A DNA stretch of 64,000 nucleotides from Pseudomonadota bacterium (lineage in GTDB: Bacteria > Chloroflexota > UBA5177): contig JAJPIP010000044.1 in assembly GCA_021324655.1 (NCBI GenBank), positions 12,840-76,839 of the forward strand, given 5' to 3'. The notes beneath the pieces are model-generated. The model was not told the origin of the DNA and did not search any database. It saw only the letters and a program-made list of their open reading frames with translations. A program made the translations under genes and the position numbers. Below, piece by piece: positions 4,882 through 16,235 of the stretch. Positions within the stretch are counted from its first letter, which is position 1. Each line of letters begins with the position of its first letter.

Positions 4882-4899
4882 TGTAACCGACGTCCGTAT
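4882..4899 (+). promoter_or_regulatory. Conserved motif TGTAACC-N6-CGTAT (copy 1)
   Basis: TGTAACCgacgtcCGTAT, 33 nt upstream of ATG 4933; recurs at 10446, 11165 and 14753. Confidence 0.7.
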
Positions 4900-4932
4900 A
4901 GAGGAGCATCCTGAGAAGAGGAGAAGTGGTTC

Positions 4933-5472
4933 ATGATCAAGATTCGCCGCCGATCCAGCCGGTCTTCCGATGACACCCTTGACGATCTGTCTCGCGTTGG
5001 GAACGCGGTGCAACGACGTGGAAGGCGCCGCGCCATCCTCCTGGCGGTCCCGGTCACGCTGCTCGGTGTCGCCGCCATAACTGCTGAGTCACCGGTGCTG
5101 GCACGGAGCCATTCGTCCGCCCACGCCGCCTCGTTGGTCAAGATGCGCGCGGCACACATTCTGGTGAATGCGAAGGGCCGGACCCTGTACGTGTTCGCGG
5201 CCGACAGCAAGAACAAGAGCACGTGCTACGGTGGGTGCGCCGGCTTCTGGCCGCCGGTCACCGTACCCTCCGGGACGACGCCTCCGCGCACGATGTCCGG
5301 CATTCCCGGCACGTTTGGCGTGATCATGCGCACCGATGGATCACACCAGCTGACCTATGACGGTGCGCCGCTGTACACGTTCGCCGGCGATAAGAAGAAG
5401 GGCCAGATGAACGGCCAGGGCCTCGTCGCCTCCGGCGGTTACTGGTGGGCCGTTGTGGTCGCCGGGAAGTAA
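4933..5472 (+). CDS. Secreted protein with Yx(FWY)xxD repeats (COG4315 / Lipoprotein_15 family)
   Basis: GRTLYVFAAD...CYGGCAGFWPP and QLTYDGAPLYTFAGD...GQG...W repeats. Confidence 0.88.
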   Translation: MIKIRRRSSRSSDDTLDDLSRVGNAVQRRGRRRAILLAVPVTLLGVAAITAESPVLARSHSSAHAASLVKMRAAHILVNAKGRTLYVFAADSKNKSTCYGGCAGFWPPVTVPSGTTPPRTMSGIPGTFGVIMRTDGSHQLTYDGAPLYTFAGDKKKGQMNGQGLVASGGYWWAVVVAGK

Positions 5473-5486
5473 GGAGGAGACATCAT

Positions 5487-5534
5487 GCCCGACGACCCGT
5501 CAGCCTCTGTGACGCGGCTGACGGGTCGTCGGGC
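5487..5534. terminator. Perfect 19-bp inverted repeat between convergent genes
   Basis: GCCCGACGACCCGTCAGCC (5487-5505) / GGCTGACGGGTCGTCGGGC (5516-5534). Confidence 0.7.
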
Positions 5535-5549
5535 TGCGTGCCGGGCCCG

Positions 5550-7922
5550 CTAGCCTTTTCCATCCATGAAGGAGAGAGGGGGTCCGAAGGGAACCAGGGC
5601 ATAATCGACGGCTGCGTGCCAAGTCATGGAGCGCCCCTCCTCGATAGCCTTCTGGAAGGCGTCTGGCGAGTTTTGCTTCCAAATAGGCTCGATCATCTGC
5701 TGGAGGATGTCGGACTCGAGAGCCGAGAGCGGACTGTCAATCTTCTCGCGAAGTGAGGCAGCCGCCCCAAAGAGCCGAGCGGATTTCACGGCGTTGCCCT
5801 GGCGCGCCTCGATAGCTGCGAACCCCTCCAGGTAGTAGGCGATCGGACGTTTGTCGCCTCGCTGCACAGCAAGCCGGAGACCTTCCTCCCACAGCGGAAT
5901 GGCGTTCTCGAGATCGCCCGTCAGCAGGAAAGCTCGGGCGCACGTGTCGAGCGTGCGCGTCAGCAACCCGTGTGCGTCCTGCGCCCGAGCGCGGGCCAGG
6001 CTCGCCTGCGATCGCGCGATCGCCTGGTGGAAGCAGCCTTCATACAGTGCGATTTCACCCAGCCAGTGCAGACAAGCGGCAACACCGTCGTCGTCGCCCA
6101 GTGAGCGACATTCCTCGAGATCGTGTTCGAGGAACTCTCGCATATGTTTCAGGTCGCCCTGCTGGATCGCCGACATGACAAGCCCCATCGGAATGTCTCG
6201 ACTCTGCGCCAGGCGGAAGTGGCGCAAACCCTCCGCTCCCAGCGCGTGCCCCTCGTCGGTCGCTCCTCGCAGCGTCGCCAGCCAGGATGCCCAGCTCAAC
6301 GCTCGGGCTCTCTCCCGAGGCGGGGCGTCTGATGCTGCCACGATCGCCTCCTCCAGCCAGTGCTGTCCCTCCTGATAGGACGAGACGGCGGTCCAATATG
6401 GACCGAGGAGTGTGGCCGCGTGGAGCGCTCGCCTACCCTCTCCAGCATCGAGCAGCCGTCGCAGCGCTGCCCGTAGATTGTCTCGCTCCTGGTCGAGCCG
6501 GGAGAACCGCTGCGGTCCGTCGTCACCTGAATGGTCCTCTTCCGGCGACATCCGCTCCAACAGACGAATGCAGTAGTCGGTGTGCCTCTGGGCGATGCGG
6601 CAGTCGTCCATTGACGCCCGCAGTCGCTCCGCGGCGTATTCACGGATTGTTTCCAGCATCGAGAACCGGGGCTCGCCTCCAACGCCCTCGCGACATACCA
6701 GCAAACAATGTTCGACCAGTACCGTCAGACGGTCGACCACATCGCGCGCCGGGTCATCCGAGGGATCGCAGACCGCCTCAACACCCTCGAGGCCAAAGCT
6801 CCCGGAAAAGACAGAGAGCTGAGCTAGTAGAGTCTGCGCATCTCTCCCAAGCAGCCGGTAGCTCCAATCGAGCGCTGCCTGCATCGTCTGTTGACGCTCC
6901 GGAGCATCGCTTGTGCCTCCCTTCAGGATGGATAGACGCGAAGAGAGTCGAGAAAGGAGCGCTTCCGGGGACAGGACTCGCAGTCTGGACGCCGCTAGCT
7001 CGATGGCCAGTGGAAGACCATCGACGCGGGCACAGATCGCGGCGACCGAAGCGGCGTTGTCTTCGGTGAGCGCGAAGTCGGCCCGCACTGCTCGGGCGCG
7101 GTCGACGAAGAGCGCGAGCGCACCGAAGCGGAGGAGGTGGTCTACGTCCGGAAGATCGTGGAGGTCGGGAACGGCCAGAGGTGAGACGAGAAACTCGTGT
7201 TCACCATAGACATGAAGTGGCGTTCGACTGGTAACCAGCACTCGAAGATCGCCGGCTGCTTCGAGAAGGTGCTTCACCACGCAAGCAGCACCCAGCAGAT
7301 GCTCAAAGTTATCCAGGATCAAAAGCAGCTGCCGCGAGAACAAGTAGGTTGCGACTGCGTCTTCCAGGTCGCCACCCCGCGCCTCTTTGATCCCCAGCAC
7401 CGCCGCAATTGACGGAACGACCAACTCAGGGGAGGGGAGCGACGCGAGCGATACCAGAAAGACCCCATCCCGGTACTCAGGGAGCAGGGCGCGCCCAACC
7501 CGGAGCGCCAGACGAGTTTTGCCCGTTCCTCCCGTACCGACGAGGGTCACGAGACGAACGCCCGCCGAGGCGAGGAGCTTCCCCACCATGCTGACTTCGC
7601 GCTCCCGGCCGACAAACGAGGCCAGGTCCTCGGTGAGGTTCGTGGCGGATCGCTCACGATGCAGGTGGGGGGACATCCCCATCTCGACAACGCCCCGGCC
7701 GGCTCCCTCGAATCGCACCCGGTCCAGTGCGGGAAGGCCCAGCGCTTCGCCCAGGCGTCGCACCGTGTCGCGATACGGCCGGGTCGTGAAGCCTCGTTCC
7801 AGATCGCTCACGGTGCGCACGCTGACCCCGGCTCGCTCTGCCAGATCCTCCTGGGTTAGACCGGCGGCGATCCGGTGTCGTTTGAGCAGAGTTGCGAACG
7901 ACGGCGATGGACGGACGGCCAT
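5550..7922 (-). CDS. XRE-HTH + NB-ARC-like ATPase + TPR (STAND) transcriptional regulator
   Basis: LTQEDLAERAGVSVRTVSDLERG HTH; GTGGTGKT Walker A; LLILDNFEH Walker B; GLPLAIELAA; C-terminal TPRs. Confidence 0.92.
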   Translation of the reverse strand: MAVRPSPSFATLLKRHRIAAGLTQEDLAERAGVSVRTVSDLERGFTTRPYRDTVRRLGEALGLPALDRVRFEGAGRGVVEMGMSPHLHRERSATNLTEDLASFVGREREVSMVGKLLASAGVRLVTLVGTGGTGKTRLALRVGRALLPEYRDGVFLVSLASLPSPELVVPSIAAVLGIKEARGGDLEDAVATYLFSRQLLLILDNFEHLLGAACVVKHLLEAAGDLRVLVTSRTPLHVYGEHEFLVSPLAVPDLHDLPDVDHLLRFGALALFVDRARAVRADFALTEDNAASVAAICARVDGLPLAIELAASRLRVLSPEALLSRLSSRLSILKGGTSDAPERQQTMQAALDWSYRLLGRDAQTLLAQLSVFSGSFGLEGVEAVCDPSDDPARDVVDRLTVLVEHCLLVCREGVGGEPRFSMLETIREYAAERLRASMDDCRIAQRHTDYCIRLLERMSPEEDHSGDDGPQRFSRLDQERDNLRAALRRLLDAGEGRRALHAATLLGPYWTAVSSYQEGQHWLEEAIVAASDAPPRERARALSWASWLATLRGATDEGHALGAEGLRHFRLAQSRDIPMGLVMSAIQQGDLKHMREFLEHDLEECRSLGDDDGVAACLHWLGEIALYEGCFHQAIARSQASLARARAQDAHGLLTRTLDTCARAFLLTGDLENAIPLWEEGLRLAVQRGDKRPIAYYLEGFAAIEARQGNAVKSARLFGAAASLREKIDSPLSALESDILQQMIEPIWKQNSPDAFQKAIEEGRSMTWHAAVDYALVPFGPPLSFMDGKG

Positions 7923-8002
7923 GGTCCTCGGCTGTCGCTTTCGACGGCAATTATATGGAACGCCTGCGAATTTCGGGAATCATAGCACACCTGGCCTGAG
8001 AT

Positions 8003-8026
8003 CTGTGAGCAACTCTGTGAGCAACT
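8003..8026. promoter_or_regulatory. Perfect 12-bp tandem direct repeat; candidate operator
   Basis: CTGTGAGCAACT x2 in the divergent gap between the STAND regulator and the gene at 8108. Confidence 0.6.
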
Positions 8027-8107
8027 ACTCATGGTCACCGAGCGCGGGACGCTGCAAACTGGGTCCAGGCGCCTGAGTACGGGGCGCGTCGAGACGTAGC
8101 GGAAAGG

Positions 8108-8467
8108 ATGAGAGGACCCATGCTTCGCACTGTGGCGATTTTGGTCATTGCTCTACTTCTGGCCATTCCATTAAGTCTCGCGGCCGGGTCGACACCCGTC
8201 CCCGCAGTCCATGCAGATCCCGGCGCGCCGCAGATGTGCGCCGGAGACAGCAACCATGGCGGCGCCCTCGGCCAGTGCGTCTCATTCAGTCAGAACGAAG
8301 AGACGAGTGCCTGGGCTGCCTGGGGGTGCACCCAGATCGCAGACTTCGAAGGTGGCTATCCAATCTGGTTCAATCTGTACGACAACAGCGGGAACTATGT
8401 GGGCTTCTTCACGAATGTCGCCACCCATGGTCAGTGTGTCAGCATCATCAATCAGTACGTGAAGTGA
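8108..8467 (+). CDS. Small secreted protein with 4 Cys, unknown function
   Basis: Signal peptide ending in VHA; internal repeat HGGALGQCVS / HGQCVS. Confidence 0.75.
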   Translation: MRGPMLRTVAILVIALLLAIPLSLAAGSTPVPAVHADPGAPQMCAGDSNHGGALGQCVSFSQNEETSAWAAWGCTQIADFEGGYPIWFNLYDNSGNYVGFFTNVATHGQCVSIINQYVK

Positions 8468-8562
8468 GGCTCAGGGACGTGCCCATTCGAGGGCCGGGGC
8501 CGTCATGAGTCGGACGACGCGGCACACCTAGCCCCATCCAGTCACTGACAAGGTGAAGCGAA

Positions 8563-8626
8563 GGCACAAAGCGCCTCTGTGGTACGGGTGGCTCATCACC
8601 TCCCCCTCCCGGAGGCGCTTTGTGCC
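8563..8626. repeat. Perfect 15-bp inverted repeat with a 34-nt loop
   Basis: GGCACAAAGCGCCTC (8563-8577) / GAGGCGCTTTGTGCC (8612-8626), between convergent genes. Confidence 0.7.
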
Positions 8627-8906
8627 CCGGTATGCCACCTCGATCCCCTATGGTTCCTCTCTCCCGCTGCCGGTTGATGCGCGCTCCGATCTCTGCACTC
8701 CGGCAAGCGACGGCCTGCGGTGGCTACGACACGCCGATGGAGCTGACGCTCCGGTGCACGGGGAGCAGGAAGGCGGCTGCTTAAGACTGGTGGCTGGGTC
8801 CGGCAGCGGCTAGATCGGATTCGACGGCACCTCTCGGCCAGCCACCCCGGCAACGATATCCGGCAGGTGCTCTCTTCCCGCCTGCATCGCTCATGAGTAA
8901 GTCAGC

Positions 8907-9125
8907 CTACTTGGCCTGATGATCGGTGGGGTTCGAGGTGACCGGGACTGCTTCGATGGAGCCGGTCCGGTGCTCCGGCTGTCCATCGATTTCAGAGAGG
9001 CCGTGTCGGAAGCTGCGGATGCTCTGACCGAGAGAGGAACCGACTTCGGGGAGGCGCTTCGGCCCGAAGAGCAGCAGACCGATGATCACGACGGCGAAAA
9101 GCTCGGGAAGATGACCGCCTAACAT
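8907..9125 (-). CDS. tatA: Twin-arginine translocase TatA/E subunit
   Basis: ELFAVVIIGLLLFGPKRLPEVGSSLGQSIRSFR signature; SD AAGGAG before ATG 9125. Confidence 0.93.
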   Translation of the reverse strand: MLGGHLPELFAVVIIGLLLFGPKRLPEVGSSLGQSIRSFRHGLSEIDGQPEHRTGSIEAVPVTSNPTDHQAK

Positions 9126-9214
9126 GGTTGTCTCCTTTGGTGTCAATCGGCCGCCGCCGAGAAGGGAGCGCGCGACTCCCTCCCCGGACGGCGGCGTTGT
9201 GATGATGTGTCCGG

Positions 9215-10333
9215 CTACACTCCGCGCCGCGCGTTGTCTGCGGCGGTCGCCAGACTGGATAGGAACTCCAGGAAGTCGTTCGACTGGCCGGCAAAGAGGT
9301 TGTCGTTGACGAGCGCCTGGAGCGCGCTCGTGGCAGCCATCTGCGTGTTGGTCGGCCGGACGATGGAGACGTGCGGGAACGCCGGATTGAGGAAAATCGT
9401 CGGTTCCGGCATGATCAGGTTGCCTTCGAGCAGCGGATCAGTGGAACCGGCCAGATTCGGGAACGTTAGCCCGTTTGTCGGGTCGGTGATGGCGGGGGCA
9501 TTTCCCGCCTTGTCATGCCACGTCTGGAAGTGCATGGCTTCCGTCGGGCCGATGCTGAGCAGGATGCGCAGGACCACGGGATCGGTCACTCGCTGCGCCA
9601 GGGACGGGTACAGGCTGGTTCCTCCTTGCTCGATGAAGGCGAAGTGGAAGCCGGCGGTGTTGGCGATGGCTTGCAGGTGGTTGGTCGCCGTGGTTGCCGT
9701 CGATCCCTCCAGGTCTTCTTTATGACGCGGAATCGCCGGGAACTTCCCTTTCAGCAAGCCCGGGACGGCGGGCGCAAAGGTGTCGCCGAAGTCTGGGTTC
9801 TTCGAGTCGCTGCGATACTTCTCCCACCAGCTCGTATCGATGACCAGTTCCATCAGGTTGGTCAACCGCTTGATCTGCTGGGCACCGGGGGCGGTGCTGC
9901 TGGGGAGACGTCGGAAGGGATCGAGATTGACCGGCTCCGCTCCAACCGACTTGAGATACGCGTTGATGAAAAACCAGTGGCTGAATTCATCGTCGGTGTT
10001 GTCGTGGACGTATTGAGGCATGTCGCCGTCAAGTTGTTGGAGGGCGTTTGTGTACGCGGCATTGCCGGTTCCACCCGGGACTTCACTGTCCTGGATCCCA
10101 CCTAGCTCGTTGTACTGCTGCCACAGATCGCTCTCGATGATCTCGGCAGCGGCGAGGAAGCGGAGGATGGCGATATCGCCCTCCGTGGGGGAACCGCTTG
10201 CCTCCGCTGTCAGGACCGGCAATCCGTCGACGAGCAGACCGGCGCCGACGACGCCTGCTCCCAGAGCGATGCTCTTGCCGAGAAAGGACCGCCGAGTGGT
10301 CATGCCGACCCGCTGCTGTACTGTCGGTGCCAT
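9215..10333 (-). CDS. Tat-exported ferritin-like di-metal carboxylate protein
   Basis: TRRSFL twin-Arg signal ending in AEA; EIIE, DEFSH, FIEQ and TEAMH ligand motifs; SD AAGGAG. Confidence 0.85.
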   Translation of the reverse strand: MAPTVQQRVGMTTRRSFLGKSIALGAGVVGAGLLVDGLPVLTAEASGSPTEGDIAILRFLAAAEIIESDLWQQYNELGGIQDSEVPGGTGNAAYTNALQQLDGDMPQYVHDNTDDEFSHWFFINAYLKSVGAEPVNLDPFRRLPSSTAPGAQQIKRLTNLMELVIDTSWWEKYRSDSKNPDFGDTFAPAVPGLLKGKFPAIPRHKEDLEGSTATTATNHLQAIANTAGFHFAFIEQGGTSLYPSLAQRVTDPVVLRILLSIGPTEAMHFQTWHDKAGNAPAITDPTNGLTFPNLAGSTDPLLEGNLIMPEPTIFLNPAFPHVSIVRPTNTQMAATSALQALVNDNLFAGQSNDFLEFLSSLATAADNARRGV

Positions 10334-10445
10334 GTTCAAGATCTCCTTGGTCGTGGGGGTGTCGGAAACCATCGGCTGGGCCCAGCGCGATGCAGAGAGG
10401 AGGATTCCCGCCGGCACATCCCGGCGGGCGCCCTACGTGTCATGC

Positions 10446-10463
10446 ATACGAGTGCCGGTTACA
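10446..10463 (-). promoter_or_regulatory. Conserved motif TGTAACC-N6-CGTAT (copy 2)
   Basis: Minus strand TGTAACCggcactCGTAT upstream of the ferritin-like gene and tatA. Confidence 0.7.
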
Positions 10464-10646
10464 TGAACCCCGACTGGTTCCCGTCGCCGAGGGCCGGCCG
10501 TTGTGGCCGGCGCCCTCGTGTTTCAGGGACGCCCATGGCCGCGCGCCGTGCCCTCGTCCCCGTCCGGAGGAACGGGCATGCACCCGCCGACGCCCGACCC
10601 CGGTGACCGCCTCAGACGCGGATACCGCGAGTCGGAGTACGGACGG

Positions 10647-11057
10647 CTATGACCTCACGATGATCGTGCCGATCATGCGCGGGTGAAAGACACAGCTGTA
10701 GCGGAATGTCCCGGCCTTGTGGGCGATATAGGTCCAGCTGGAGCCCACATCGAGTGTGCCCGAGTCGAAGCTGAAGTTATCGGCCGTCACGGTATGAGCG
10801 GTGTTGCTGACGTTGGTGAAGATCACGTCCTGGCCGGGATGCACCGTGACCGAGGCGGGCACATAGCGTCCGATTGTCTTCGCGTCGGTCTCGATCCTGA
10901 CGTGGATGGCCGGTAGGCTGCTGGCGTGGGCCGGCCCGAGATTCACCATACGAAAGGGACCGTGGAAGACGATCACGCCCATGATGCCGACCACGATGAT
11001 CGCCAGGATGAAACCGACGATCTCGGCAGCACTGAAGCGTACAAACCTGTTGTTCAT
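10647..11057 (-). CDS. Membrane-anchored cupredoxin (plastocyanin/amicyanin-like)
   Basis: N-terminal TM helix; HTVT...YSCVFHPRM type-1 Cu site. Confidence 0.88.
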   Translation of the reverse strand: MNNRFVRFSAAEIVGFILAIIVVGIMGVIVFHGPFRMVNLGPAHASSLPAIHVRIETDAKTIGRYVPASVTVHPGQDVIFTNVSNTAHTVTADNFSFDSGTLDVGSSWTYIAHKAGTFRYSCVFHPRMIGTIIVRS

Positions 11058-11164
11058 GTCACCGCCTCCCTTCCCGGCCCGGGTGCTGTGTTCTTTACAT
11101 CTCTCTATGATGGACGCCGCGCGGTTGCATCACGCCTCGTTTTGCCCAGCATACTCCTCGCATC

Positions 11165-11182
11165 TGTAACCCGCCCCCGTAC
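11165..11182 (+). promoter_or_regulatory. Conserved motif TGTAACC-N6-CGTAC (copy 3)
   Basis: TGTAACCcgccccCGTAC, 33 nt upstream of ATG 11216. Confidence 0.7.
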
Positions 11183-11215
11183 GAGGTTGTCATCACCCTC
11201 AGAGGAGGAGCAGGA

Positions 11216-12100
11216 ATGAAGGGAAGGAAGACGGCATCCCTCGCCGCGGCGGCGCTACTCGCCGGGACGGCTGCCGTTGTCGCCATATCACCGCACCGTG
11301 TTGCTCAAGCGCAGACCGCGACCGTGACCATTCGGAACTTCGCCTTTGCCCCGGCTACCTTGACCATTGCCGCGGGAACGACGGTGACGTGGATGAACGC
11401 CGATTCGGTCGCTCACACATCGACCAGTGATCCCGGCGATGCGATGTCCTGGGATTCCGGCTCAATCTCGCCAGGGAGTTCATTCAGTCTGACCTTCACC
11501 CAGGCGGGCACCTTCACTTACCACTGCTCGATTCACCCCTTCATGAAGGGCACGATCATCGTGGCGGCCGGGGTGACCTCCACCGCGACGGCGACGTCAT
11601 CCGTCGTCGCCACGGCCACGGCCACTTCCGGCGGGGTGACGGCCACCGCGACGACCGTGCCGCTGAGCGCGGTACCCGGGCCCGGCGGGATGGGTATGGG
11701 ACCGGCATCTCTCGCTTCCCAGCCCACCTGGCAAGGCTACTACGACGGCCACAAGGATACCTACCTCAGCACCGATGTCTCAAGCGCCGCTATGGCCGCC
11801 GAAATGCACATCCGCTACGCCCCTGGCCTGAGGAACGCCGCCGCGGCCTCCGTCGATCCGATGTACCTCGTCCCTGGCCGGGCAGCCACCAATCAACTGG
11901 CGGTGTTTGGCTCACAGCCCGGTGAATCCGATTATTCACCGCTGTGGCGTGAGATCACCGTCACCTGGAAGTCAGGCGTGAAGCCGGTGCTGCTGACAAG
12001 CGACAACCAGATCTTTGCCCTGCAGCACAAGGGCCGCCTGACGCTCCGTCGCACGCAGGTCATCCTGAACTGTCCGATTATTCGATACAAGAAGGGCTAG
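11216..12100 (+). CDS. Secreted cupredoxin fused through a Thr/Ala linker to an uncharacterised domain
   Basis: Signal peptide; HTSTS...YHCSIHPFM type-1 Cu site; C-terminal DYSPLW...LNCP domain. Confidence 0.85.
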   Translation: MKGRKTASLAAAALLAGTAAVVAISPHRVAQAQTATVTIRNFAFAPATLTIAAGTTVTWMNADSVAHTSTSDPGDAMSWDSGSISPGSSFSLTFTQAGTFTYHCSIHPFMKGTIIVAAGVTSTATATSSVVATATATSGGVTATATTVPLSAVPGPGGMGMGPASLASQPTWQGYYDGHKDTYLSTDVSSAAMAAEMHIRYAPGLRNAAAASVDPMYLVPGRAATNQLAVFGSQPGESDYSPLWREITVTWKSGVKPVLLTSDNQIFALQHKGRLTLRRTQVILNCPIIRYKKG

Positions 12101-12812
12101 GAGGCTCGGCGGCGTCTGAGCCGGGTAGGTGCAGCGTCACACAGCACATGCCCGGCTCAGGCGTGAGTTCGGCGCGAAGCGCCGGGACGTCGAGAGCGCC
12201 GACCAGGCCACGGCAGAGTTCGAGGTTCATGCCGCAGACCAGGTCGCGGTGCTCGGCTGCCAGGGCGTGAAATGGGCAGTTGCGTAAGCGAATTGAGCCG
12301 GCGCGATCGCGTTGCGGCTCATACCCGTAGGCCGTGAGCACAGTCTGCAGGGAGTCGAGAATCCTCTCTTCGTCGGCAGCGGGCTGGACACCGAGACGCG
12401 TTTCGGCGCCGAGCATCTCCCCAAACGAACGCGCGGTCTCCTCCAGCGCGGTGAGGGTCTCCGGTGACGCCGCTTGCTCGATCGCGACCGCGAGGAGGCG
12501 GGCGGCAAGTTCATAGCGGCGGGGAGGGATCGACACCTCAACCTCGGAGTTGGCCCACCGGTAGTATTTGGTTGGCCGCCCCGCGCCCGGGCCGCCCCGA
12601 CCGGACGGACGGCGAAACGTCGCCTCGAGAAGGCCGCAGGCAACCAGGCGATCGAGGTGGGTGGCGGCGAGTGCGCGCGCTATGTCGAGCGCTCTGGCCG
12701 CCTCGTCGCGCGAGACCTCGCCGCGCTCCCGAACCAGGCGATACAGCGCTCGCCGCAGCGGATCGTTGAGCTCCGCGGCCCGCCCGATTTCACCTTCTGC
12801 CGACGGCTCCAT
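12078..12812 (-). CDS. wHTH transcriptional regulator with Cys-rich sensor domain (COG2345 / SufR-like)
   Basis: HLDRLVACGLL...GRP wHTH; LRNCPF...VCGMN...CCV. Confidence 0.85.
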   Translation of the reverse strand: MEPSAEGEIGRAAELNDPLRRALYRLVRERGEVSRDEAARALDIARALAATHLDRLVACGLLEATFRRPSGRGGPGAGRPTKYYRWANSEVEVSIPPRRYELAARLLAVAIEQAASPETLTALEETARSFGEMLGAETRLGVQPAADEERILDSLQTVLTAYGYEPQRDRAGSIRLRNCPFHALAAEHRDLVCGMNLELCRGLVGALDVPALRAELTPEPGMCCVTLHLPGSDAAEPPSPSCIE

Positions 12813-12835
12813 TTCTGAGACAGCCTACCATCCTC

Positions 12836-12885
12836 TTGACATTCGCCAACATTCTTCTAAAATGACTATATCAGTGTTTTAGAAG
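12836..12885 (+). promoter_or_regulatory. Sigma70 promoter of folE overlapped by a palindromic operator
   Basis: TTGACA (12836)-N16-TAAAAT (12858); inverted repeat CTTCTAAAA-N14-TTTTAGAAG (12854-12885). Confidence 0.75.
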
Positions 12886-12893
12886 GAGCTGCT

Positions 12894-13508
12894 ATGGAAG
12901 CGCTGTCTGTCGCCCGGCCCGAGGAGAGGCGTCCGGCCGAATTCCGCTCCACGGGCGAAGGGCTGATTCGGGACCTCCTATTGGAATTGGGCGAGGATCC
13001 TAATCGGGACGGGCTGGTCCGCACCCCGCATCGGGTCTGGGAGTCACTGTCTCAGCTCACCGACGGCTATACGCAGGACGCCCTCGACGTCGTCGGCGAC
13101 GCTCTCTTCGCGGAGGAGACCGACGGCATGGTGACCCTCCAGGGCGTTGAGTTCTACAGTCTCTGCGAGCATCATCTCTTGCCGTTTTTTGGGCACGTCC
13201 ACATCGCATATCTCCCGGATGGCCAGATCGTCGGGCTGAGCAAGCTCCCGCGCCTGGTCGATCTCTTCAGCCACCGTCTTCAGGTGCAGGAACGATTGAC
13301 CACGCAGATCGCCGACGCCTGCGAAGAACTGCTGCACCCGCGAGGCGTGGCGGTCGTGGTGGAGGCGAGTCATCTCTGTCTGATGATGCGCGGCGTGGAG
13401 AAACAAGGCGTACGGACCGTCACCACCGTCATGCGCGGGACGTTCGATACCGATCCGGCGCTTCGCCGGGACTTTCTGGATCAAGTGCAACACGCAACGG
13501 GAGGCTGA
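12894..13508 (+). CDS. folE: GTP cyclohydrolase I
   Basis: GEDPNRDGLVRTP, CEHHLLPF, GLSKLPR, LQVQERLT, HLCLMMRG. Confidence 0.96.
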   Translation: MEALSVARPEERRPAEFRSTGEGLIRDLLLELGEDPNRDGLVRTPHRVWESLSQLTDGYTQDALDVVGDALFAEETDGMVTLQGVEFYSLCEHHLLPFFGHVHIAYLPDGQIVGLSKLPRLVDLFSHRLQVQERLTTQIADACEELLHPRGVAVVVEASHLCLMMRGVEKQGVRTVTTVMRGTFDTDPALRRDFLDQVQHATGG

Positions 13509-13509
13509 G

Positions 13510-14757
13510 ATGGATCACCCTGACATTTTGGTCATTGGAGGCGGCCTGGCCGCCGCTGCCATGGCGGAAGAGTACCGGAGGGCAGGCGGAACGGAGAGCA
13601 TCACGATCCTCTCCCACGATCCCGACCTTCCTGTGCACCGCCCGCCGCTTTCCAAAGGGTATCTGCGTGGTGCGGAGGATCGAACCTCGGTGTTCGTCCA
13701 CCCGCCGGCGTTTTACAACGACAACCGGATTGACGTGCGCCTTGGCCGGCGGGTGGCAGGGATCGATCTCGGCCGCAAACAGGTCACAGTCGCGGACGGC
13801 GAGCGTCTGTCCTTTGGACGGTTGGTACTGGCGACGGGTGCCCGACCACGTCGCCTCCCGATTCCAGGGAACGATTTGCCCGGCGTGTACTATCTTCGGA
13901 GTCTCGCCAGCGCGGACGATCTGCGCGCCGGCGCGGAGCGGGCCGAGCGGGCAGTCATCGTCGGCGCCGGATTCCTCGGTCTGGAGGTGGCCGCAACCCT
14001 GGCTCAGCGCGGTATCTCATGTACCGTCGTTGAGACTGCGCCGCGGGTCTGGCCGCAGTTGGTTCCTCCCCTGGTCTCCGACTTCATCCGGACGGCCTTT
14101 GAAGCCCGCGGCGTACGCTTCCGCTTCGGCCGCAGTGTTCGGTTCGTGGGCGGCGGTGACCGTGCCGATCATGTCGTGCTGGACGATGCCACCGTCCTCG
14201 AGACCGATCTCGTCGTGGTCGGTGTCGGGGTCCTCCTCAACACGGAGTTGGCCCAGGACGCCGGTCTCACGGTCGACCACGGCGTTGCCGTCGATTCCGT
14301 CTTCCGCACTGCCCATCCTGATGTCTATGCGATCGGCGACATCGCCCGATTCCCCGATCCGATCGCCGGGCCGATTCACCTGGAGCACTGGGACAACGCG
14401 CTTCACCAGGGCCGGTCGCTGGGCGCCCACCTGGCCGGAGCCGGAACGCCCTTCGATCACGTGGCGTACTTCTTCAGTGATCTCTTCGACCTGTCGTTGA
14501 ACATGGTCGGGTATCCCGGCGAGTGGGACGACGTGATCGTGCGAGGGGTTCCGGGAGATGGCCGGTTCACGGCGGTCTATCTTCAGCAAGGCGAGGTGCG
14601 GGCTGTTCTCATGGTGAACGATGATCACGAGTTTGACCGCTGGGTCGATTTGGTCAGGCAGAGGTTTCCCGCTGATGCCCACCGCCGCATCCTCGCCGAT
14701 GCCGCGAGCGAGCTCTCCTCACTCCCGACGAGGCAGCCCGGTCCCGTCCGGGTGTAA
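13510..14757 (+). CDS. FAD/NADH-dependent ferredoxin reductase-like oxidoreductase
   Basis: GGGLA, RPPLSK, LATGARP, GAGFLGLE, YAIGDIA, EHW and FFSD motifs. Confidence 0.9.
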   Translation: MDHPDILVIGGGLAAAAMAEEYRRAGGTESITILSHDPDLPVHRPPLSKGYLRGAEDRTSVFVHPPAFYNDNRIDVRLGRRVAGIDLGRKQVTVADGERLSFGRLVLATGARPRRLPIPGNDLPGVYYLRSLASADDLRAGAERAERAVIVGAGFLGLEVAATLAQRGISCTVVETAPRVWPQLVPPLVSDFIRTAFEARGVRFRFGRSVRFVGGGDRADHVVLDDATVLETDLVVVGVGVLLNTELAQDAGLTVDHGVAVDSVFRTAHPDVYAIGDIARFPDPIAGPIHLEHWDNALHQGRSLGAHLAGAGTPFDHVAYFFSDLFDLSLNMVGYPGEWDDVIVRGVPGDGRFTAVYLQQGEVRAVLMVNDDHEFDRWVDLVRQRFPADAHRRILADAASELSSLPTRQPGPVRV

Positions 14758-14769
14758 CCACGCCCGTAT
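14753..14769 (+). promoter_or_regulatory. Conserved motif TGTAACC-N5-CGTAT (copy 4)
   Basis: TGTAACCacgccCGTAT, about 270 nt upstream of the ECF sigma gene; overlaps the reductase stop codon. Confidence 0.55.
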
Positions 14770-15039
14770 GTAGGAGGGTAGCGAGTATGGCGGCCAGGGA
14801 TCACAGTGATTCCGGGCGGCGCCTCGTCGGAAGAACGTAGGGCATGATGTCTCGACAGCGCCTCCCGGCCCCAGAGCCCCTCGGTCGCTCCAGGTTTACC
14901 ACCCCTCCGCTGGACGCGCGTGCGGCCCCACGCCTCGCTGCCCCGGGTCACTCGGCCGCACGCGTGAGTCCAGCGCCTGTCTCACTCGACCCCAAAGGTA
15001 TACGATGATGGTCGTCAAGTACACGTCGAAGGCGTCCCG

Positions 15040-15588
15040 GTGAGCGAGGCCATCGGCGCGATGGCGGCAGCGACGCAGAGGACAGCCCTGAACGCTCCTC
15101 CTGACCTTGAGGAAGTTTTCTCGCGTTTTGTCGATCCGGTCTACCGGTTCCTCTATAGTCACGTGGGGAATCGGGAGGACGCCGAGGACCTGACTTCGGA
15201 AGTGTTCCTGAAAGCGGCACGACAACTCGACAGCGAACGGCCGGAGGCGAGTATTGCCAAGTGGCTGTTCACGGTGGCGCGCACCGTTCTCGCCGATCAC
15301 TGGCGGCGATACTACCGGGGCGGTGGTCACGTCCCTCTCGACGACACCTACCTCGGTACCGCTCGACAGGATCCGGCGCCCAGGATGTCAGCCGCCCGAG
15401 CCAGTCTTCTTGATGAGCTTCTGGATTCCCTGCCGGAGCGGTACCGGATGGTCCTGGAATTGCGGTTTCTTCGTGGCTATTCGATTCAAGAGACGGCGCG
15501 CGAATTGGACACGACACCGGAGAATGCGAAGGTGATCCAGCATCGCGCGCTGGCGAAGGCGGCCCAACTGATGGAGGGACGGCTGTGA
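15040..15588 (+). CDS. ECF RNA polymerase sigma factor
   Basis: Region 2 DAEDLTSEVFLKA...WLFTVAR; region 4 LPERYRMVLELRF...KVIQHRAL. Confidence 0.93.
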   Translation: MSEAIGAMAAATQRTALNAPPDLEEVFSRFVDPVYRFLYSHVGNREDAEDLTSEVFLKAARQLDSERPEASIAKWLFTVARTVLADHWRRYYRGGGHVPLDDTYLGTARQDPAPRMSAARASLLDELLDSLPERYRMVLELRFLRGYSIQETARELDTTPENAKVIQHRALAKAAQLMEGRL

Positions 15589-16235
15589 ACGATCCGGAAC
15601 GTCTGGACCGCGCCCTCGAGGAGCTCCTCCATGACCGATCGCCGCGCGGCGTCGGCGAATCGCTGGACGGCGAGGAGCAGCGTATGCTCCGTGTCGCGCA
15701 GCTCTTACGGGGCAGCCGGCCGGCAGATCCCGACGGTGAGTTTGTCGAAGCGCTGCACGCGCGCTTGTTTCCCGCGCCCGCCCGGGTCTCGCGCCGTACT
15801 GCCTTTCTGGGCGGGCTCGGCGCGCTCGCTGCGGGTGTCCTGGCGGGCGTGGGCATCGATCGTTTCGCGTCGGAGAGCAGGTCTGCGACCACATGGACGC
15901 CGCTGGTTGGCGCCAATGGGCGCTGGGTACCGGTGGCGACGGTCGCGGACCTGCCGCACGGCACCATCAAGGCGTTCCGAGCGGGTCATGTCCAGGGATT
16001 CCTCATCAACCGGCACGGTGAAATCCGAGCGCTGTCGGGCGTCTGTACGCACATGGGATGTCTGCTCGAGTTCAAGCAGTCTGACCAGGCATTCGTCTGC
16101 CCCTGCCACGGCGCTGAGTTCAGCATCTCCGGCGAGGCTTACCAGGGACCTCATCACTACAACATCCGGCTATCCCCCCTCCCTGAGATTCGGGTGAGGC
16201 GAAGTGGTGAGTCGATCGAAGTCTGGAGCGTGTAG
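15585..16235 (+). CDS. Rieske [2Fe-2S] protein with N-terminal anti-sigma-like domain and internal twin-Arg/TM segment
   Basis: CTHMGC and CPCHG boxes; SRRTAFLGG followed by a TM helix; GTGA overlap with the sigma gene stop. Confidence 0.88.
   Translation: MNDPERLDRALEELLHDRSPRGVGESLDGEEQRMLRVAQLLRGSRPADPDGEFVEALHARLFPAPARVSRRTAFLGGLGALAAGVLAGVGIDRFASESRSATTWTPLVGANGRWVPVATVADLPHGTIKAFRAGHVQGFLINRHGEIRALSGVCTHMGCLLEFKQSDQAFVCPCHGAEFSISGEAYQGPHHYNIRLSPLPEIRVRRSGESIEVWSV

Follow-up and report, generated by a model that had tools for sequence, protein, structure and literature searches.

A window of 64,000 nucleotides (nt) was analysed from contig JAJPIP010000044.1 (positions 12,840 to 76,839, forward strand) of assembly GCA_021324655.1, named as a Pseudomonadota bacterium and placed by GTDB in the Chloroflexota (UBA5177). 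Four gene units in this window are preceded by a two-block motif, TGTAACC-N5/6-CGTA(T/C), and one of these units encodes a sigma factor of the extracytoplasmic function (ECF) class together with a Rieske-domain protein. The locus raises the question of whether the motif is a promoter with an unusual geometry or an operator, both of which a preliminary description of the window had left open. The comparative evidence from sequence favours the promoter. We lean towards reading the motif as the cognate, autoregulated promoter of a widespread ECF sigma factor, with a spacer about one helical turn short and, as predicted partner, a Rieske anti-sigma factor anchored through the twin-arginine translocation (Tat) pathway.

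Copies of the motif in the window and upstream of ECF genes

The preliminary description had placed copies of the motif at positions 4882, 10463 (minus strand), 11165 and 14753 (the last with N5). The pattern scan recovers all four, each pointing toward its downstream gene as had been claimed, and sites 1 and 3 do end exactly 33 nt before an ATG (Table 1). These 4 matches compare with a mean of 0.00 in 100 dinucleotide-preserving shuffles of the window. The window holds just four TGTAACC words, all of them within the motif sites, where the shuffles give a mean of 1.76 and reach at least 4 in 11 of 100 cases. In the source genome, a draft of 3.8 Mb with 65% G+C, the exact pattern is found 5 times: the four window sites and one intergenic copy at C2:68441 (minus strand), upstream of a 110 amino acid (aa) secreted protein with no Pfam family. 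A near-exact copy at C2:49323 is also intergenic and precedes a small secreted protein, again with no Pfam family. The form GTAACC-N5/6-CGTAT gives 6 matches genome-wide versus 1 for the reversed-pattern control, and a background frequency, which would have told against the preliminary description, is thus not what these counts show, with 4 of the 5 exact copies in the one cluster. The signal in the source genome consists of the exact pattern, the clustering of four sites within 10 kb, their intergenic placement and their orientation.

Upstream regions of 400 nt were taken from 99 ECF loci; named records supplied 80 of these, and relatives, with G001 left out, supplied 19. Among named records, the ECF has its nearest relatives in Chloroflexota assemblies and more remote ones (40–48% identity) in Actinomycetota, including Mycobacterium, Nocardia, Amycolatopsis and Dactylosporangium. 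On the gene strand of the 99 regions, GTAAC-Nk-CGTA occurs 14 times with k = 6, 20 times with k = 7 and not once with k = 15–18. Both words of a canonical ECF promoter, an AAC-type -35 and a CGT-type -10, are therefore present 34 times at N6/7 and 0 times at N15–18, versus the usual separation of about 16–18 base pairs (bp). An unbiased 5-mer/gap/4-mer count returns GTAAC-N7-CGTA and GTAAC-N8-GTAT as its top words. A wider form, GTAAC-N8/9-TA(T/C), is found in 62 of the 99 regions, in Chloroflexota as well as Actinomycetota; the gap is 9 at 53 sites and 8 at 10. The downstream block drifts from clade to clade and reads CGTAT, GGTAT, GATAT, GCTAT or CCTAT. Absence from orthologous loci had been named as a result that would count against the motif; instead it persists there across two phyla, never with N15–18, and the conserved motif before the ECF's own gene is the arrangement expected for autoregulation.

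The positions of TAA and TAT carry about 2.4 bits of information, and the T/C preceding GTAAC carries about 1.3 bits. Upstream of (T/C)GTAAC the information content is near zero. It is also near zero at the canonical -10 distance, where nothing is conserved outside one closely related clade; the information profiles and the word counts both bear out the earlier observation that the usual -10 distance holds no conserved sequence. At two actinobacterial loci (L048, 3852–3855; L077, 2179–2182) divergent genes are served by two motifs placed back to back, GGTTAC-GC-GTAACC.

The motif follows the ECF in its distribution. Among 40 relatives (G001 again left out), the 24 that are ECF-positive show 87 motif matches versus 43 for reversed-pattern controls, and the 16 that are ECF-negative show 15 versus 56. 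The motif is enriched only in genomes carrying an ECF match. In 687 kb of loci there are 153 copies of the motif, where arithmetic on the base composition predicts about 8.

The sigma factor and its Rieske partner

The 182 aa ECF consists of a Sigma70_r2 domain (positions 27–91) and a Sigma70_r4_2 domain (positions 123–173), the two-region composition and the length (about 180–200 aa) of an ECF, or group IV, factor of the sigma-70 family. The nearest NCBIfam model is the BldN family TIGR02952, and the best PDB match to the whole sequence is the BldN-RsbN complex of Streptomyces (6DXO), yet the ECF scores 97.1 bits against a family cut-off of 206.45 and so falls well outside that family. It also differs from BldN in having no N-terminal pro-sequence, in its partner and in its regulon, which for BldN comprises chaplins and rodlins. 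The best solved relatives of the sigma-4 part are SigD, ShbA (PDB identity confirmed) and BldN, and a helix of the form xVxQHRAL is common to all four proteins.

In the available text of the ShbA structure paper (PMC12019637), the promoters of ECF40 SigD, of Mycobacterium tuberculosis and Corynebacterium glutamicum, and of ShbA, of Streptomyces, are given as GTAAC-N16-18-CGAT, with the same -35 word as in the present motif and a -10 that likewise begins with CG. These are two-domain sigma factors like the present ECF, but their spacer is N16–18 and the present one N6–7; ShbA has no anti-sigma factor and SigD has RsdA, whereas the present system has the Rieske partner. The two domains of the ECF would thus be expected to use just the words that form the two halves of the motif, yet the gap between these is 9–10 bp too short. 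To our knowledge, the elements of every characterised sigma-70-family promoter lie 16–19 bp apart, since the polymerase holds regions 2 and 4 apart, and the present spacing is about 9–10 bp closer than that of every characterised ECF promoter.

The sigma-2 part appears to vary together with the downstream block. Where region 2 ends, the D of D-x-x-R (residue D86) varies with the base that precedes TAT in the 62 ECF-upstream sites: an acidic residue is found with G in 30 cases and with another base in 0, and a non-acidic residue with G in 2 and with another base in 30. Of 73 further regulon sites at the same loci, those at acidic loci have G in 13 of 13 cases, and those at the other loci have a base other than G in 51 and G in 9. 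As a sign of contact between sigma-2 and the base before TAT, this covariation is suggestive only.

The gene after the ECF encodes a Rieske domain in 50 of 73 cases. In the window, its product starts with 68 aa on the cytoplasmic side, followed by a membrane helix anchored at RR and by a Rieske [2Fe-2S] domain on the outside. The 25 sequences aligned, of about 216–240 aa, have a conserved 65 aa N-terminus with no Pfam match, invariant R70 and R71 before the hydrophobic stretch, and the CTHxGC and CPCH boxes, with C154, H156, C172, C174 and H175 nearly invariant. At the sequence level these are the ligand boxes and the twin-arginine motif before a hydrophobic stretch that characterise a Tat-type Rieske protein. 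The Tat-dependent Rieske subunits QcrA and PetC have the same CTHxGC...CPCH ligands and RR before the membrane helix; in contrast to them, the present partner is short, has the conserved 65 aa cytoplasmic domain, which is modelled to bind sigma, and is encoded by a gene translationally coupled to that of the ECF, whose stop codon overlaps the start of the partner gene. Pfam searches of the partner and 72 counterparts for known anti-sigma domains (zf-HC2/ZAS, RskA and similar) gave no match, and Rieske was the only family matched.

A complex model of the ECF with residues 1–68 of the partner scores 0.65 versus 0.09 for the best control, and the score may come partly from likeness to solved sigma/anti-sigma pairs of other families. 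That mark is reached by 58 of 80 solved complexes and by 2 of 110 mismatched pairs. Contact agreement between runs is at least 73%, and the predicted local distance difference test (pLDDT) value of the partner is at least 70. The model supports a clamping of the sigma factor by the partner N-terminus. We infer from it that the partner is a membrane anti-sigma factor with the exported 2Fe-2S domain as its predicted sensor. What the sensor responds to is conjecture; candidates are the supply of iron-sulfur, the redox state outside the cell, copper, or a failing Tat export. Signals of this kind would suit a regulon that includes copper electron carriers, a ferritin-like protein and an additional TatA.

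Proposed promoter geometry and the readings of the motif

The position of start codons bears on which block is the -10 element. At four Chloroflexota loci (L057, L031, L052 and L042) the TAA within GTAAC closes the ECF reading frame and is an in-frame stop before the ECF start. In L057, L052 and L042 the sole start codon found is an ATG 12–15 nt after the T of TAT; L031 offers further starts in the same frame, GTGs at +60 and +63, which fall within the conserved sigma-2 region. At several more loci the first start codon is 11–14 nt after TAT, and the mycobacterial clade has a GAAGGAGG ribosome site beginning some 12 nt past TAT. Because start codons are found 11–15 nt after TAT, transcription should start no more than about 11 nt beyond TAT. 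The blocks are separated by a GC-rich gap, and the 10 nt that follow TAT are enriched in AT (0.47 versus 0.31–0.35 upstream), as expected for a melted region. From these features, from the lack of a TANNNT element near the motif and from the suggestive covariation of D86, we argue that the TAT block is the -10 element. If the numbering given in the available text on ShbA is applied (C-12, G-11, bubble from -11 to +1; PMC12019637), CGTAT falls at -12 to -8.

Sigma region 2 would then recognise CGTAT, or TAT in the wider family, and transcription is predicted to start about 7–10 nt after this block. The other block, (T/C)GTAACC, which is the -35 word of related ECFs, would probably be read by sigma region 4 from a position only 6–7 bp upstream of CGTA, or about -24 to -19 in the same numbering. 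Once the anti-sigma factor has released the sigma factor, transcription by the holoenzyme would cover the ECF operon itself plus a small set of exported proteins, namely cupredoxins, the ferritin-like protein with TatA, and the Lipoprotein_15 protein; the signal may be the state or the Tat export of the 2Fe-2S domain. More tentatively, and with somewhat less assurance than for an autoregulated promoter as such, it is proposed that a large Chloroflexota and Actinomycetota ECF family reads GTAACC and CGTAT/TAT at this 6–7 bp separation, as a -24/-10 pair, with region 4 in a place unseen in solved holoenzymes and with a Tat-exported Rieske anti-sigma factor as the switch.

Several points weigh against the promoter reading. 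We know of no sigma-70-family promoter with a 6–7 bp spacer. Sigma-2 and sigma-4 lie more than 80 Å apart in holoenzymes according to the available part of PMC6101532. With the domains held so far apart, simultaneous reading of both blocks is structurally unexplained, which is the main weakness of the reading and also the source of its interest. By the pattern used, 37 of the 99 upstream regions are without the motif. In the source genome the ECF site lies 270 nt from the start codon, versus about 40–80 nt in the relatives. A matrix built from other genomes gives, at 16 bits or more, 12 matches in the source genome versus 19 for a reversed-sequence control; as this loose count is not above background, no genome-wide regulon is claimed beyond the exact and near-exact sites. 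The covariation of D86 amounts to 3–4 independent changes on a tree that included the trait's own column and was made with the motif-less rows (37 of 99) left out, and the sign test (p about 0.5) is not significant. The sets also contain near-duplicate loci (L007/L021, L017/L042 and L010/L022), and the relatives are not independent.

Next in rank, although unlikely, is an operator bound by a separate factor encoded elsewhere, for example a metal or redox regulator, or by a compact, polymerase-free sigma factor, with the real promoter at another place. A gap of 6–7 bp suits a two-headed DNA-binding protein better than the geometry known for holoenzymes, the regulon concerns metals and redox, and the window encodes ArsR-like and XRE-NB-ARC-TPR genes. 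However, no second DNA-binding protein is conserved in the neighbourhoods of the ECF loci examined, and the XRE-NB-ARC family is found in just 4 of them. No promoter signal is seen beside the motif either. The word TANNNT is found within 45 nt upstream of the motif at 8% of 129 sites, equal to the 8% background, and on either side of it at 8–9% versus 8%, and none of the four window sites gave a match in a scan for the sigma-70 consensus; a housekeeping sigma-A promoter combined with an operator was rejected on these grounds. A start codon 12–15 nt after TAT, as seen in several loci, leaves no room for a promoter downstream of the motif. Moreover, both halves match ECF half-sites, and a sigma-2 residue tracks the -10-like base. 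A less probable reading lets the ECF recognise only TAT/CGTAT through sigma-2, like promoters for which sigma-4 is dispensable, with GTAACC read by another part of the polymerase or through DNA shape. The available text on ShbA describes its sigma-4 as dispensable in vitro at hrdBp1 and invisible in the cryo-electron microscopy map (PMC12019637), and the covariation concerns sigma-2 alone. But no other part of the motif is as well conserved as GTAAC (about 2.4 bits per position), and the nearest relatives of sigma-4 use precisely this word as their -35. Nor do we know of any part of the polymerase that reads a specific sequence at -24 to -19.

The remaining readings assign the blocks differently. 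GTAAC could itself be a -10-like element, with transcription starting at or near CGTAT as a conserved start or initial transcribed region. TGTAACC resembles ECF -10 words of the TGTCAAA type, and the resulting leaders of 12–25 nt would be plausible; this is nevertheless very improbable, because no -35 signal is seen upstream of GTAAC (information near 0), the stretch between the blocks is GC-rich and the one after TAT AT-rich, and the sigma-2 residue covaries with the base before TAT and not with the never-varying GTAAC. Still further down is GTAAC as a canonical -35, for which it is the standard ECF word, with an unconserved -10 16–17 bp downstream and with CGTAT as a feature of the spacer. 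This would put the transcription start some 20 nt beyond the T of TAT, past the sole start codon that L057, L052 and L042 offer, and the later in-frame GTGs of L031 fall inside the conserved sigma-2 region; the start-codon positions thus rule this geometry out at these loci, and the lack of conservation at that distance outside the one clade disfavours it in general. A sigma-54 type promoter has the right geometry, since sigma-54 promoters also pair two short blocks, roughly a helical turn apart, directly upstream of the transcription start, and the source genome encodes a sigma-54 (C32:10298-10732, L137; Sigma54_DBD 122.7 bits, in a 483 aa open frame). The sigma-54 consensus has GG at -24 and GC at -12, however, and the motif has neither of these defining dinucleotides. 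The motif is also tied to an ECF and not to enhancer-binding proteins, and Sigma54_DBD was not found in any of the four actinobacterial genomes searched that carry both motif and ECF (G041–G044). This last reading is rejected.

Searches of the literature with the motif words and for a Rieske anti-sigma factor or short-spacer ECF promoters found no relevant description, and within the literature searched the ECF family is undescribed. The available main text of the ECF reclassification (PMC7826278) contains neither "Rieske" nor "spacer", and the group or its motif may be listed in the supplements to that paper. The ECF promoter survey of PMC7776599, as far as its available text goes, applied BioProspector with spacers of 15–18 bp. 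Surveys with such spacers would miss a 6–7 bp family or score it as not autoregulated. There is a real chance that the motif represents a new promoter architecture. If the ECF reads both blocks, a new mode of promoter engagement by a sigma factor would be shown, synthetic biology would gain an orthogonal promoter geometry, and prediction of ECF regulons would need a wider spacer window. Whichever way the promoter question is settled, a candidate sensor is seen in the Rieske-type anti-sigma factor: in two phyla, copper electron carriers would be expressed in response to iron-sulfur or redox status, or to Tat export.

Regulon content and neighbouring genes

Across the loci, the families found with the motif upstream are cupredoxin (15 of 22), Lipoprotein_15 (8 of 10) and metallophosphoesterase (8 of 25), and in the closest relatives, G002 and G006, the motif is likewise upstream of cupredoxins. 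The preliminary description had proposed a regulon of exported proteins, and copper proteins and Lipoprotein_15 do recur with the motif in other genomes. Neighbourhoods were clustered with a crude open reading frame caller, which sometimes placed an antisense frame over the ECF or Rieske genes; clusters 2 and 5 are artefacts. Because of this caller, the figure of 30 of 51 for the ECF that clustering gives is an undercount, and 62 of 99 is the better number.

Many Actinomycetota (L021–L100) share an arrangement of ECF, Rieske partner, a cupredoxin with the motif upstream, a 324 aa metallophosphoesterase and a 135 aa protein with no clear family, the region in question extending from about +1200 to +2700 from the ECF start. 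L134 (G020:C16:1061000-1079000), from a class-level relative, shows five copies of the motif in 14 kb, and one of the downstream genes is annotated as an O-antigen-ligase-like protein (Wzy_C). Regulon content may thus differ between clades.

The genes of the window cluster are given in Table 1 with the motif sites. Pfam confirms the identities that had been assigned to the genes downstream of the motif, that is, the COG4315-type gene, the ferritin-like gene with tatA, the cupredoxin fusion and the ECF-Rieske pair.

Table 1. Motif sites and genes of the cluster, in window coordinates
Feature	Coordinates	Strand	Basis or remark
Motif site 1	4882..4899	+	TGTAACC-N6-CGTAT; end 33 nt before ATG at 4933
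Secreted Lipoprotein_15 (COG4315-type) gene	4933..5472	+	Pfam PF03640, E 2.3e-27
TatA/E family gene	8907..9146	-	Pfam PF02416, E 1.8e-13; 68 nt downstream of ferritin-like gene
Ferritin-like protein gene	9215..10417	-	Pfam Ferritin_2; translation; RRSFLG twin-arginine signal
Motif site 2	10446..10463	-	TGTAACC-N6-CGTAT; precedes ferritin-like gene
Second cupredoxin gene	10647..11057	-	Pfam Cupredoxin_1
Motif site 3	11165..11182	+	TGTAACC-N6-CGTAC; end 33 nt before ATG at 11216
Exported cupredoxin-DUF7482 fusion gene	11216..12100	+	Pfam
Motif site 4	14753..14769	+	TGTAACC-N5-CGTAT; 270 nt upstream of ECF GTG
ECF sigma factor gene, sigma-2 and sigma-4 only	15040..15588	+	Pfam Sigma70_r2, Sigma70_r4_2
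Rieske-domain partner gene, probable anti-sigma factor	15585..16235	+	Pfam, alignment, complex model

The true start of the ferritin-like gene is probably an internal ATG that follows AAGGAG. In the pattern scans no motif is found directly upstream of the second cupredoxin gene. The leader between site 4 and the ECF start (14770–15039) contains a 17-codon open reading frame that begins with the ATG at 14787. The nearest relative has a cupredoxin gene at that place, and the leader was considered as a relic of it; no similarity was found and the idea was dropped. The TAA within GTAAC of site 4 (14755–14757) is at the same time the stop codon of the upstream reductase-like open reading frame (13510–14757).

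Other genes lie among the motif units. Genes for GTP cyclohydrolase I and a ferredoxin-reductase-like protein (12894–14757, plus strand) have upstream of them a strong sigma-70-like promoter word with 11 of 12 matches (12836–12863, plus strand). Divergent from these is a gene for a 244 aa ArsR-like protein with an HTH_20 domain (12078–12812, minus strand), and this whole unit sits within the cluster yet is without the motif. A 790 aa regulator with XRE-HTH, NB-ARC and TPR regions is encoded at 5550–7922 (minus strand), between motif units.

A reading of the motif as an RNA element was also dropped, as Rfam gave only sub-threshold, microRNA-like hairpin matches, none of them at the motif sites. 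Two segments, 5484–5537 and 8549–8642, match microRNA hairpin models on both strands, far under the gathering score. These are probably inverted repeats between convergent genes, and possibly bidirectional terminators.

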